Positions 1 through 3,000 of a stretch of DNA of 4,699 nt are shown here, piece after piece. The position numbers were made by a program. The stretch comes from a virus (Duplodnaviria; Heunggongvirae; Uroviricota; Caudoviricetes): the IMG/VR virus record IMGVR_UViG_2531839103_000015; one strand, written 5' to 3'. Numbering within the stretch: the first letter of the stretch is position 1; the number at the start of each line of letters is the position of its first letter.

Positions 1-3000
1 TACTGGCATCAACAGGGAGTACAGGCGACTCGTATGACAACGCGATGGCTGAGAGCATCAATGGTCTTTACAAAGCGGAGGTAATACACCGTAAGAGCTG
101 GAAAAACCGTGCAGAAGTGGAACTGGCCACACTAACGTGGGTGGACTGGTATAACAATCGACGATTGCTGGGAAGGCTGGGCCATGCTCCTCCGGCAGAA
201 GCAGAAAAAGCTTATTATGCTTCCATCGGAAACGATGATCTGGCAGCCTGAGTTCACAGATAAAACACTCTCCAGGAAACCCGGGGCGGTTCATGACTGT
301 TAAAGAGCGGGTACTGCTTAGGCGGCTTTGTTACTGGATGGAGGGAAAACATCATCCAAAGAACATTGGCACCCTAACTTCCTGAGGCCTTCTACGATCA
401 TTCGGCAATCGTTAAGGCCAGGAGTACGGATATTCAGCTCATAGTTGGCGATGCGGGATTGCCCCCAACCAATTGCCGAAGCTAGTACAGCTTGCGAAAC
501 TCCGATTTTTTTTCGCTGCTGGGCAATTTTGTTCATTGCGGTCTCCCTAGCATTAATCACACACCCATTACACACAATTTGTGATTAACAGTCAACCTCA
601 ATTCGTGTACAGAGTTCAATCACGTTGCGTGTTACATTTAAGGGATGAAAACGATGCATGAAATTATCGGGGAAAGGATCAAGTCCCTTAGAGAAGCTAA
701 AGGACTTAGCCAGGCTCAATTGGCCAAGCTTTGCGGCTGGGCTGCGCCTTCACGCCTGGGGAACTACGAGTTAGGAACAAGAAAGGTTAGCGCGGATGAC
801 GCGCTGGTTCTTGGGGCGGCACTCGGCGTATCTCCGGCAAAAATAATGTTTGGCGAGGATTCAGACGCCGTATTTCGCCAATATGAATACCCGTTATTTT
901 CTTCAGTGCAGGCCGGGCCATTTTCGGAGGTGGGAAGCTACACAGCCAGCGATGCAAAGGCATGGGTCCCAACGACCACAAAAGCCAGCGAAAAAGCTTT
1001 CTGGCTTGAGGTGAAGGGGCATTCAATGACGGCGCCTCAGGGGGTTCGTCCAAGTTTTCCGGAAGGCATGCTGATACTCGTTGATCCGGCTGAGCCGGTA
1101 GAGTCTGGGGATTTCTGCGTGGCTTCTGCAAATGGTGATTCAGAGGCAACGTTCAAGAAGTATGAGAAGGATGCAGGGGTTAGTTACCTGGTACCTTTAA
1201 ACCCGGCATATAGAACCCTGGATTGCGACCATAGCTGCCGCATCATAGGCAAGGTAGTTAAGGCGCAGTGGCCTGAAGAGACGTTTGGCTGATCGGCAAG
1301 GTGTTCTGGTCGGCGCATAGCTGGTAATCCAACTTTTCCCTGTTCTTTTTATGCAAATTAATCTAATGAAATTGAAAAGATTTTTACCTATTTTGTTGGT
1401 TCAGGAGAACATAAATGAGCGATAAACAAGAAGTTTCCTTAGCACATATCAATGATGTGCTGGAGTCCAAAAATTATATTGAAACTAATGCTGATGGGGT
1501 TGTAACCATCGGAACGGATAACAATGGCTACGAAGTTTTTAACTTCGTTTTTCTCAATAGCACCCCTGTCATCGGCCATATGAATGGCGAAATCGCAGTG
1601 GCAGGAATGCAGCGCACTAAGGTTGCGTCCGTGACTTTAAGTAAACAGAAGGCCTTCGATTTCTATCAGTCCTTGAAAAGCATGTTCGAGGAATAAAAGC
1701 TGATGAATGCAGCTCAATCATCTTTGGATGAGGGAAAGCTAGTAATTGCTTACTCTGATAAGAATGGCTCTACAGTAGGGCTGGAATTTTCTTCTGTAGC
1801 ATCAAGCCAAGCAACGCTCTTGATGAAAGCTTGTTCTGTTGCTGCTTCAGATAAAGAAAAACGGATTGTCACATCGGTTGTGATGGATGATACTGAGATC
1901 ATTCAAACAACAAGTGATGATGGAGGCGACGACATGGATAAGCGATTAGCAGTTCTTGAAGCTGAAGTTGCGCACATCAAGAGCAGCATGGCAGGAATTA
2001 AAGAGGATACCCGGAAAATATCTTCTGATTCTACTGACGCCAAAAGAGACACCGCTGTACTTTTACAGAAGAGCCTGGATTTTGATGCTTCATTATCTAA
2101 GAAACCATCGGTTGACTACTTTGAAGCTAAATTTTCCGCTTTGGAAACCAAGATAGCAGATGTAAAAGTATGGATGCTCGGGGTTCTCTTGGCCTCGCTT
2201 GCTATGCCAACTATATTTTTCCTAATAAACTTGTACCTTAAGAAAGGTCAGTAATTTAGCAAATCCGGCCACCGAGCCGGGTTTTTTATTGCCCGCCGAT
2301 CACTATCAGGACAGCACCTGCCCGCCGGTCCAAACTATTGATTAAATTACTATAATTCTTAATACAACTCCCATATCCCGCCATCTCGCCACCACCCCAT
2401 TCGCTCGTTTTTCGAACTTTTCAGCACCCATCCTGCTGTTGCCACCGACTTAAGTAAGCAAAACCATCGCGGGTAAAACTATTTACACAAAAAAATCATA
2501 CACATAACGTGTCACACCTTTATTTTACACATTTTGTGATTGACCATTAAATCACAATATGTGACTATCATTTCCATCAGCAGGACGCTGAGACGCCACA
2601 AGGAACAGATTGGCAGGCTCTTTAACATCGACGAACTCTCAACCTAACCGTTGAGACCAGAACTTGAGTGGTTTTGGGGATGGCGCGAATTGCAGCTGCA
2701 AGACAGCGATCGAGAAGATAAACACCTCGACGCGTCATGCGCCAAAGCCACTTAAAGGAGACCATCATGGTAACCATTGTCTGGAAAGAATCCAAAGGTA
2801 CGGCAAAAAGCCGCTACAAAGCTCGCAGAGCAGAACTTATTGCCGAGCGACGCAGTAATGAAGCACTGGCGCGAAAAATTGCGCTAAAGCTCTCTGGTTG
2901 CGTCAGAGCAGACAAAGCAGCATCACTCGGAAGCCTTCGCTGCAAGAAGGCAGATGAATGCAGTGGAAGTATTTGCCTGCCAAACGTAGCCATTTACGCG

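Follow-up and report, generated by a model that had tools for sequence, protein, structure and literature searches.

The non-coding gap between the repressor-operon terminator and the left operators of a VT1-Sakai-type lambdoid prophage: a spacer of the immunity module and a possible transcriptional buffer

The stretch of DNA that separates the end of a prophage repressor operon from the left operators raises a simple question, i.e., whether it holds a gene, a small RNA, a promoter or a recombination joint, or whether it serves the regulatory elements on either side. The window analyzed here (the whole 4,699 nt of IMG/VR record IMGVR_UViG_2531839103_000015) is 100% identical to AP000400 (VT1-Sakai) and represents the immunity region of a lambdoid prophage of the VT1-Sakai type. 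The terminator and the OL operators that flank the stretch have been annotated in AP000400 since its deposition, and the VT1-Sakai annotation places kil and cIII downstream of pL. The layout around the spacer is as follows:

645–1292, cI
1415–2254, cargo (two genes)
2261–2288, plus strand, intrinsic terminator ending the cI–cargo operon (terminator scan; VT1-Sakai annotation "terminator for pRM transcript")
2498–2514, plus strand, OL3 (VT1-Sakai annotation)
2525–2541, plus strand, OL2 (VT1-Sakai annotation)
2550–2566, plus strand, OL1 (VT1-Sakai annotation)
2540–2545 and 2563–2568, plus strand, −35 (TTGACC) and −10 (GACTAT) hexamers of pL, with the transcript start at ~2576
2767–3039, N

The spacer (2290–2497), read on the strand of pL, follows the final gene of the cI (pRM) operon and precedes the outermost left operator. 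It is an ordinary non-coding gap between a T_IMM-type intrinsic terminator and OL3/pL; T_IMM is described as the immunity region's intrinsic terminator (bioRxiv 10.1101/2021.04.19.439022). This lambdoid architecture is well known, the flanks of the stretch are already annotated in the VT1-Sakai record, and the initial annotation was right in describing a non-coding spacer between the cassette terminator, which ends at 2288, and OL, which begins at 2498. The terminator consists of a CCGGC/GCCGG stem, a 6-nt loop and a T6 run. Its hairpin aligns with lambda T_IMM, of which it is the counterpart. Among relatives the stem is kept and the loop is variable, and the exact lambda hairpin CCCGGCCTCAGCGCCGGG is present in some relatives of the same immunity; hairpins of the T_IMM type were found in at least six immunity types. 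The right-hand boundary is the OL/pL block (2498–2576), in which OL shows 0 substitutions per 79 nt across eight relatives and the pL transcript start, CATCAGCAGGACGC, is identical to that of lambda pL. The features of the spacer itself are:

2289–2326, linker common to several immunity types, holding both TGCCCGCCG copies
2331–2343, minus strand, exact match (AATCAATAGTTTG) to the IHF consensus WATCARNNNNTTR (pattern search)
2338–2366, AT-rich block with TTGATT (2338–2343) and TATAAT (2351–2356) (sequence; no promoter call)
2356–2450, plus strand, C-rich, G-poor, weakly structured tract, candidate Rho-loading (rut-like) region (composition)
2471–2497, plus strand, A-rich element upstream of pL (GGTAAAACTATTTACACAAAAAAATCA)

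The spacer contains neither a detectable gene nor a recognizable RNA gene, and its GC-rich repeat and TATAAT motif are incidental. The repeat TGCCCGCCG occurs twice, at 2290–2298 and 2319–2327, and TATAAT is found at 2351–2356 with TTGATT (2338–2343) 7 bp upstream, exactly where the initial annotation had located them. The repeat extends to 11 identical bases out of 12 (TGCCCGCCGATC at 2290–2301 and TGCCCGCCGGTC at 2319–2330), and first-order Markov modelling of the spacer yielded a 9-mer direct pair in 12.5% of simulations. The second copy of the repeat varies among relatives (TGCCAGCC, TGCACGCC and TTCCCGCC), and both copies are degenerate (TGCCTGCAC and TGCCAGCCT) in phage L089, which shares part of the stretch. 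Over the whole window, TATAAT has two plus-strand occurrences and one on the minus strand, close to the ~2.3 expected for any hexamer. Neither the repeat nor TATAAT is above chance. Other repeats were considered and set aside, namely a 12/14 match to the pL spacer/OL1, an 11-nt inverted repeat with the pL transcript start and a 9-nt inverted repeat across the terminator, all of which are at chance level by rough estimates.

The proposal that a small RNA resides in the spacer found no support in Rfam, in folding, in the promoter scan or in the Sakai Hfq list. The best Rfam matches of the spacer reached 8–18 bits, far below gathering scores, and folding gave z-scores of −1.48 (plus strand) and +0.97 (minus strand) with no stable fold. 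In the Hfq-crosslinking sRNA list for Sakai, which comprises Hfq-bound RNAs only, the Sp15 entries found lie elsewhere, no coordinate starts with 2934 and none is reported at Sakai 2,934,5xx. The prophage sRNAs AsxR, AgvB, EcOnc, Pas, HnrS and StxS were also considered; all of them lie in late regions and none in the immunity region. The initial annotation had noted the lack of an ORF with an SD, and the plus strand has no ORF of at least 20 aa overlapping 2285–2505.

Could TATAAT nevertheless be a real promoter, driving a plus-strand small RNA or acting as a secondary promoter like lambda pL2? The −10 hexamer is perfect, the DNA upstream of it is AT-rich, and the block at 2338–2366 is invariant among the eight relatives except for flanking positions; lambda itself reportedly has a dual pL promoter system (Giladi 1992). 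Yet such a promoter is highly improbable. The initial annotation had already remarked that a properly spaced −35 is missing, and indeed the 7-bp spacing makes no promoter: hexamers at 16–18 bp agree with TTGACA in only 2–3 of 6 bases, the −10 lacks a preceding TG, and the scan called no sigma-70-like site in 2290–2500 on either strand. Moreover, the terminator scan found no terminator on the plus strand between 2289 and OL, so no defined small product would be made, and the RNA would be unstructured and C-rich. The published text of a dRNA-seq study names only PL, PR, PR′, PI, PRE and PRM as phage promoters (PMC7547250).

The distribution of the spacer shows to which module it belongs. Of 5426 E. 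coli genomes, 108 carry it at 96–100% identity, as do six phage records, and nothing is annotated under the matches except one small hypothetical ORF over OL, the end of which overlaps the match, in one mEpX1 record. Every relative fetched has the same cro and OL beside it. All five RefSeq E. coli genomes fetched share one protein accession for the cI product. Among the relatives compared, cI differs by 1–4 bases, with the exception of PDP110P1 (L008), in which the cI match is partial. The neighboring cargo varies, with at least four different cassettes, and where the same cargo occurs in a lambda-immunity prophage, the lambda spacer is found there and only the terminator and ~18–20 nt beyond it are retained. 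Linkage of the spacer follows the cI/cro/operator type and is independent of the neighboring cargo; the spacer is part of the immunity module, not of the cargo. In related prophages it is conserved background sequence, the outcome that the initial annotation had itself named as speaking against its proposals.

A recombination joint between the cargo cassette and the pL region had also been suggested, and the comparison bears this out in part, placing the probable joints towards the left-hand end of the spacer, not deeper in it. Homology breaks at ~2264, ~2307 and ~2326. The first of these, within the terminator hairpin, is the boundary with alternative cargo cassettes, and the last is the immunity boundary with L089, which is of a different immunity type, matches the window at 87% over 2260–2326 and diverges beyond. 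The lambda-immunity locus with the same cargo (L009) matches up to ~2307. The first ~40 nt of the spacer are a shared linker, and 2327–2497 belongs to the immunity module. The linker (2289–2326) is also the most variable part of the spacer; of the ~10 variable positions in the whole spacer (poly-C tract excluded), ~6 fall within 2290–2335. Short sequences shared at the module boundaries of mosaic lambdoid genomes are expected sites of exchange, and Juhala et al. 2000, cited in PMC4104026, is an example of the literature on this mosaicism. Like linkers at such junctions, the terminator and the next 20–65 nt are common to unrelated cassettes and several immunity types. Recombination at this site would explain the pattern, but so could selection to keep a functional terminator behind whatever cassette is present.

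Lambda offers the closest positional comparison. Its rexB–OL3 region (35,652–35,824) likewise separates the final pRM-operon gene from OL3/pL and is non-coding. Its hairpin is of the same type (CCCGGCC..GCCGGG and a T run, then TTGCC), and its spacer is also C-rich and G-poor on the pL-sense strand, with an A-rich tract directly upstream of OL3. However, the lambda spacer is ~150 nt long, compared with 208 nt here, and the operators and the repressor are of different specificity. Homology between the two spacers was considered and rejected: a MAFFT alignment was suggestive, but shuffling gave a global z of −0.09 and P > 0.35 for all three local segments. Beyond the first ~18–25 nt, the relation is one of positional analogy only.

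The right-hand end of the spacer resembles the upstream regions of other pL promoters. An A7 run (2488–2494) spans approximately −88 to −82 relative to the start of pL, and TTTACACA (2481–2488) equals the left half-site of OL2. Of 30 lambdoid pL types, 24 have a run of at least five A between about −125 and −55 (background, 12%), and many of these have AAAAA(A)TAAAT near −100. At the corresponding position, the diverged relative L099 reads GCAAAAAATAAATCC. Lambda likewise has A-rich DNA directly upstream of OL3, about −80 to −105 from the start; it carries AAAAAATAAAT, whereas the present type has the diverged GTAAAACTATTTAC plus A7. Giladi et al. 1992 and 1998 reportedly describe an IHF site and a distant UP element upstream of lambda pL.

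An IHF-binding architectural site, composed of AATCAATAGTTTG and the adjoining AT-rich tract, is a related candidate; a bend at this place could affect pL, OL–OR looping or termination, and it could coexist with the buffer reading proposed below. The match to the consensus is exact. The window has two matches where 0.56 are expected, and ~0.025 would be expected per 208 bp. The site overlaps TTGATT, and its minus-strand 5′ flank, AAGAATTATAGTAATTT, is AT-rich, contains TATAAT and lies on the correct side. It is kept in all eight relatives, with one substitution (in YZ22) on an N position, but this conservation is uninformative because the whole spacer is 96–100% identical. The upstream region of lambda pL reportedly uses IHF (Giladi 1992 and 1998). 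The sole strict consensus upstream of pL here is centered ~240 bp from the start rather than near −86, the position in lambda, and is too far away for a lambda-style mechanism. Furthermore, a strict consensus upstream of pL is not general: it occurs in 3 of 30 types, against 3% in the background, and is missing from 27 of the 30 other pL-upstream regions, lambda included, the lambda spacer having no match within one mismatch. On balance, an IHF site at this position is unlikely.

The middle of the spacer is distinguished by its composition. The 78-nt windows 2356–2433 and 2357–2434, with 33 C and 6 G, are the most extreme of the 4,699 bases, and the tract at 2356–2450 that contains them includes a polymorphic poly-C stretch (2389–2399). 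This tract holds the peak of the largest C>G bubble of the window (2159–2676; area 5581 %×bp, maximum 34.6%), in which YC-N9–13 chains reach n = 7; the plus strand of the spacer folds with −30.9 kcal/mol per 208 nt. The compositional marks of a Rho-dependent terminator, as taken from PMC6144790, are all present, namely a C>G bubble of at least ~80 nt, (YC)N9–13 chains of at least 4, little structure and no translation. The published in vitro criterion is a bubble area >700 or a length >78 bp, and every template tested above the area threshold terminated in vitro (PMC6144790); the bubble area here is ~8-fold above that threshold. Nevertheless, the criterion is unspecific, because C>G bubbles are common in E. 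coli, at ~2.2 per kb (PMC6144790).

The same bias recurs in other long spacers that follow T_IMM-type hairpins. C and G counts on the same strand are 36/9 in the lambda type, 52/15 in L089 and 66/26 in this type, and the three spacers are apparently unrelated, with a shuffle z near 0 for lambda and this one, the only pair tested. ORF-free gaps that contain a pL upstream region have a mean skew of +0.21, positive in 29 of 31, against −0.005 for other gaps in the same contigs, only 1.1% of which reach |0.4|; the skew of the spacer in the window is 0.44. In at least 15 of 30 lambdoid pL types, however, the terminator is only 12–54 nt from the OL block and no long C-rich spacer is present, indicating that the tract is not needed for lambdoid immunity in general.

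From this composition, our best guess is that the spacer acts as a transcriptional buffer formed by the intrinsic terminator and a back-up Rho-loading tract. The repressor operon, which runs from pRM/pRE through cI and the two cargo genes, ends at the terminator. Polymerases passing the short hairpin would then transcribe an untranslated, unstructured, C-rich and G-poor RNA (2356–2450), which would be an ideal loading site for Rho, and they would be released before or at the repressor-occupied operators, so that N, cIII and kil would not be expressed from lysogenic promoters. The last ~30 nt (2471–2497) would serve as the A-rich upstream element of pL, and the AT-rich block at 2331–2366 may bind IHF. 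Taken as a whole, the combination of a buffer, an A-rich pL element and a possible IHF block is the best explanation of the gap, and we place it just short of an even chance. A precedent is the rac prophage, which relies on a Rho-dependent terminator (trac) in the PRM-racR transcript to silence kil, with lethal consequences when termination fails; the Rho-loading region there was placed by a high C/G ratio and low structure (PMC4150792). As with rac trac, read-through of a prophage immunity transcript into the early-left operon (kil) must be stopped. However, trac was shown experimentally and lies within racR, whereas the action of Rho here is predicted from composition only and the tract, located after an intrinsic terminator, would be a possible back-up.

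The spacer might instead be functionless filler, i.e., neutral DNA hitch-hiking between a selected terminator and OL, with its motifs and composition being historical accidents. Its divergence agrees with this. The relatives show 1–5 substitutions per 208 nt in the spacer, 1–4 per 648 nt in cI where it matches in full length and 0–1 per 108 nt in OR, and the cI substitutions are silent wherever the protein accession is shared; by this comparison, the spacer seems to drift at about the synonymous rate of cI, while OL remains unchanged. Such a rate fits constraint on composition rather than on sequence, and it fits equally well with no function. The absence of a long spacer from half of the lambdoid pL types and the chance-level occurrence of the repeat and TATAAT point the same way. 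On the other hand, filler would not be expected to show the top skew of a 4.7-kb window, at a level that so few other ORF-free gaps attain, nor the same direction of skew in spacer families without evident sequence similarity, nor a 3′ end matching the A-rich element seen in many pL types. We regard the filler explanation as rather unlikely, if less so than an IHF site.

The C>G skew could also be the ghost of an old minus-strand gene, since a remnant of this kind would explain the G-rich minus strand. Indeed, in phi80-type phages (phi80, HK639 and HK225) and in the IMG/VR loci L079 and L080, exactly this slot between terminator and OL holds a minus-strand gene of 68–69 aa (PHROG 3975, E = 8e-34), which ends at the same type of terminator hairpin, and minus-strand ORFs of 28–32 aa exist in the present spacer. 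The deleted-gene remnant put forward in the initial annotation nevertheless gained no support from PHROG and tblastn searches: the minus-strand frames have no PHROG match, and tblastn with the spacer frames returned only the same six phages. The 32-aa minus-strand ORF at 2384–2286 was rejected as a candidate; its homologues occur only in those six phages, it has no PHROG, its stop is lost in HCM-25C-3 and it is interrupted in L089. A short DNA resemblance to the PHROG 3975 gene (TTTTCGA...CTTTTCA) was likewise discarded, as tblastn of the protein found no match in the window at E up to 50. A decayed gene is quite improbable.

Whatever the role of the tract, a cargo slot at the rexAB position is bounded on its right by a shared sequence, which consists of the terminator and the few dozen bases that follow. 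This slot holds very different cassettes in otherwise identical immunity regions, and its boundary helps to delimit cassettes when prophages are mined for accessory or defense genes. Turning back to the buffer reading, its broadest form is that the C-rich tract after T_IMM-type terminators is a selected, composition-encoded Rho-loading zone which, together with the roadblock of OL-bound repressor, forms a fail-safe insulator keeping pRM/pRE read-through out of N, cIII and kil in lysogens. It would then belong generally to one class of lambdoid immunity regions, that of lambda included, as an element not described before, because the tract recurs in the lambda, L089 and VT1-Sakai/mEpX1 spacers without evident similarity. 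This generalization is doubtful, about on a par with the filler explanation. If true, a Rho back-up would account for the ability of lysogens to live with leaky termination of the repressor operon immediately upstream of early genes that are toxic.

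The window comes from a lambdoid prophage of VT1-Sakai type in E. coli O157:H7 and represents its immunity region, in an orientation that is the reverse of the usual lambda map. Positions 2255–2520 match phage VT1-Sakai (AP000400) at 100% identity and phiSTEC801-Stx1a, mEpX1, and PDP110P1 at 98.5–99.6%. The VT1-Sakai annotation, the ORF list, and scans give the following feature map:

1 to ~301, end of an IS3-family element
318–536, minus strand, cro
570–634, OR
645–1292, cI
1415–1696, cargo ORF 1
1703–2254, cargo ORF 2
2261–2288, intrinsic terminator
2290–2497, spacer
2498–2514, 2525–2541, and 2550–2566, OL3, OL2, and OL1
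2540–2545, −35 of pL, with the start at ~2576
2767–3039, N
3056–3637, minus strand, sieB
4326–4384, cIII RNA thermometer, a full-length match to the lambda element (Rfam RF01804, 88.5 bits, E = 2e-21)

This architecture is the classical lambda one and the finding is ordinary; GenBank has contained the spacer sequence, with annotation of the features on either side, from the VT1-Sakai record onward. The IS element is IS1203/IS629-like, with its boundary at ~298–302. Since VT1-Sakai homology starts only at ~302, it lies inside the annotated nutR, 17 nt beyond the cro stop codon. In this copy of the prophage, it disconnects pR from cII, O, P, and Q; it is absent from most related genomes, where matches start at 292–302.

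The spacer is non-coding, immunity-linked, and flanked by the terminator and the operators. As the initial annotation had held, it is a non-coding stretch from terminator to OL. Its plus strand is free of ORFs of ≥20 aa, and it is almost certainly a part of the immunity module without a gene of its own. It is present in 108 of 5426 complete E. coli genomes, with at least 99% identity in 94 of the 110 matching records, and is thus conserved background sequence in relatives, a state that the initial annotation had set against its own proposals. Across the relatives fetched, cro and OL are identical; cI has a single protein accession across the RefSeq genomes fetched and differs by 1–4 bases in all relatives but PDP110P1, whose cI matches partially. 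The genes between cI and the terminator vary, and four cassettes were seen: the window's pair (93 and 183 aa), the mEpX1 pair (159 and 310 aa), one protein of 348 aa on its own, and a set comprising a HigB-like toxin, an HTH protein, and a protein of 134 aa. Homology to all relatives with alternative cassettes starts within the terminator hairpin, at ~2264. The lambda-immunity prophage L009 carries the window's cargo pair, the terminator, and ~20 nt past it, followed by the lambda spacer and OL, and L089, of a further immunity type, is 87% identical over 2260–2326 and divergent beyond. These breaks therefore make the spacer bipartite. The terminator with 2289–2326 is a shared linker that bears the mosaic joints, and 2327–2497 an immunity-specific body. 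The recombination joint suspected initially does exist, although its place is in this linker, on the left margin of the region. The same hairpin type stands upstream of OL in at least six immunity types, among them lambda, where it is described as T_IMM, the immunity-region terminator (bioRxiv 10.1101/2021.04.19.439022).

Cargo ORFs 1 and 2 belong to PHROG 12039 and PHROG 12602, respectively, the latter with a hydrophobic C-terminus; neither has a significant Pfam match or a PADLOC match. In L009, the pair takes the rexAB position, and under the window's own immunity the slot holds at least three other cassettes, including that with the HigB-like toxin. It looks like a hot spot for accessory or defence genes.

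The motifs reported initially lie exactly at the positions given for them, and they are at chance level. The 9-mer repeat (2290–2298 and 2319–2327) extends to 11 of 12 bases, and such a direct pair arises in 12.5% of simulated spacers. It is unconserved: relatives have TGCCAGCC, TGCACGCC, or TTCCCGCC as the second copy, and both copies are degenerate in the stretch common to L089. The TATAAT at 2351–2356 indeed lacks a proper −35, the hexamers 16–18 bp upstream being unlike one; the motif occurs three times in the window, both strands counted, which is about the expectation for any hexamer. Positions 2338–2354 (TTG-ATTAAATTACTATA) resemble the −35/spacer/OL1 stretch of pL (TTGACCATTAAATCACAATA, 2540–2559), with 12 of 14 bases identical past a 3-nt gap; this could be a vestigial pL copy and is probably chance in AT-rich sequence.

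No evidence of a gene or RNA hidden in the spacer was found. For the small RNA envisaged initially, Rfam returned noise-level matches only, the plus-strand fold is weak (−30.9 kcal/mol over 208 nt, z = −1.48), the minus-strand fold is no better than shuffles (z = +0.97), and a promoter scan of both strands made no call within the spacer. The Sp15 sRNAs identified in the list of an Hfq-crosslinking study of strain Sakai lie at 2,896,476, 2,902,714, 2,924,036, and 2,925,956; the spacer lies at ~2,934,530–2,934,737, and the sRNA table contains no coordinate starting 2934. In the text of a later dRNA-seq study, the phage promoters named are PL, PR, PR', PI, PRE, and PRM only (PMC7547250). The minus strand has three ORFs of 28–32 aa. 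Homologues of the longest (32 aa) are confined to the six phage records carrying the spacer, and it was rejected as a gene: its stop is lost in one relative and it is interrupted in L089. In the Sakai locus (NC_002695.2, 2,934,494–2,935,007), protein accession NP_311020 is skipped between ECs_2992 and N, which suggests that a small ORF in or near the spacer or OL was once annotated and later withdrawn; in one mEpX1 record (PV340543), a 38-aa ORF on the minus strand is still annotated across OL.

The terminator-to-OL slot can hold a gene, since phi80, HK639, HK225, and two IMG/VR contigs carry there a minus-strand gene for a 68–69 aa protein (PHROG 3975), located at 9149–9355 in the IMG/VR locus L079, at 2001–2207 in the phi80 locus (33348–33554 in NC_021190), and at 1986–2192 in the HK225 locus. 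This conserved gene runs antisense to pL and converges on the cI operon, and the phi80 RefSeq record does not annotate it. By analogy with pRM at OR3, its position suggests a promoter at OL3 divergent from pL. L099, a diverged relative of the window's immunity type, carries a tandem pair of intrinsic terminators ahead of OL, spaced by ~150 nt and located between ~310 and 100 nt upstream of its pL start; the non-coding unit that they enclose could represent either a cassette remnant or a gene for a small RNA.

Among eight relatives, the spacer shows 1–5 substitutions per 208 nt, and cI, with PDP110P1 left aside, 1–4 differences per 648 nt. Where the protein accession is shared, the latter are silent, and so fall on ~155 effective silent sites; drift in the spacer is thus close to neutral in rate. 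The same relatives show 0–1 difference per 108 nt in OR and none per 79 nt in OL. Spacer changes concentrate in 2290–2335 and in the poly-C stretch 2389–2399. This slippage-prone tract, the main indel site of the spacer, reads CCACCACCCCA in the window; in relatives it is CCACCACCACC, CCACCCCCCCC, a run of ten C, or shorter by one base.

For comparison of lambdoid spacers, pL regions were fetched from IMG/VR via the conserved transcript start CATCAGCAGGACGC and grouped into 30 operator types. The window's spacer ends, immediately before OL3, in an A-rich tract of ~30 nt (2471–2497). An A5+ run at about −125 to −55 occurs in 24 of the 30 types versus a 12% background; many of these runs are AAAAA(A)TAAAT at ~−100 (loci L011–L131), and the window's type has a diverged A-rich version with an A7 run. 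In lambda, this zone reportedly carries an IHF site together with a distant UP element (Giladi et al. 1992 and 1998). The A5+ run is probably the conserved form of this lambda pL upstream (IHF/UP) element. Positions 2481–2488 (TTTACACA), directly upstream of OL3, equal the left half-site of OL2; the right half has no match, so this is an isolated operator half-site.

An exact match to the IHF consensus (AATCAATAGTTTG) at 2331–2343 on the minus strand is a candidate IHF site, and the TTGATT (2338–2343) noted initially is the reverse complement of its core. The site is flanked 5' by an AT-rich tract containing the TATAAT, an arrangement known from classical IHF sites. The window contains two consensus matches versus 0.56 expected. 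The match lies ~240 bp from the pL start and is idiosyncratic, being present in only 3 of 30 other pL-upstream regions.

At positions 2356–2434, a C-rich, G-poor tract has 33 C against 6 G, and no other 78-nt stretch of the 4.7 kb is as extreme. By the published definition, a C>G bubble with an area of 5581 %×bp peaks here, with YC-N9-13 chains to n = 7. In the study that introduced these descriptors, Rho terminated in vitro on every template with a bubble of >78 bp or >700 %×bp, and such bubbles are common in the genome (PMC6144790). At least 15 of the 30 types have an intrinsic terminator only 12–54 nt from the OL block. Long spacers (128–290 nt) go with the T_IMM-type hairpin, and in each of them C exceeds G on the pL-sense strand (C/G counts 36/9, 35/12, 33/11, 52/15, 66/26, and 94/46, the last including the PHROG 3975 gene). 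The window's spacer has no significant similarity to that of lambda (z = −0.09) and, from 2327 on, no BLAST match to that of L089; the common property is therefore composition, not sequence. Mean (C−G)/(C+G) is +0.21 in ORF-free gaps including the pL-upstream region (29 of 31 positive) versus −0.005 in other gaps of the same contigs, 1.1% of which reach an absolute value of 0.4 (Mann–Whitney P = 1.4e-4); the window's spacer stands at 0.44.

We propose that the spacer may act as a transcriptional buffer, combining an intrinsic terminator and a Rho back-up with the A-rich upstream end of pL and possibly IHF, a composite explanation that we consider plausible but not quite probable. The hairpin is short (five G–C pairs and two weaker ones), so a fraction of the polymerases that start at pRM, or in the strong burst from pRE, may read through it. 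The resulting RNA would be untranslated, unstructured, and C-rich, as Rho requires, and release would be expected tens of nucleotides downstream, at the repressor-occupied operators. The Rho step itself is rather doubtful. About half of the lambdoid types are without such a tract, and near-neutral drift fits absence of function equally well. The skew might also be the ghost of a lost minus-strand gene; against the deleted-gene remnant raised in the initial annotation, the minus-strand frames have no PHROG match and tblastn for the PHROG 3975 protein found no hit in the window even at E = 50.

For the Rho back-up, the rac prophage provides a precedent for keeping kil off: there, kil is suppressed by Rho-dependent termination of the PRM-racR transcript, and cells die when this terminator fails (PMC4150792). 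The only mildly new point here is the proposal that such a back-up may be encoded in composition. Its outcome would be that N, cIII, and kil stay silent in the lysogen.
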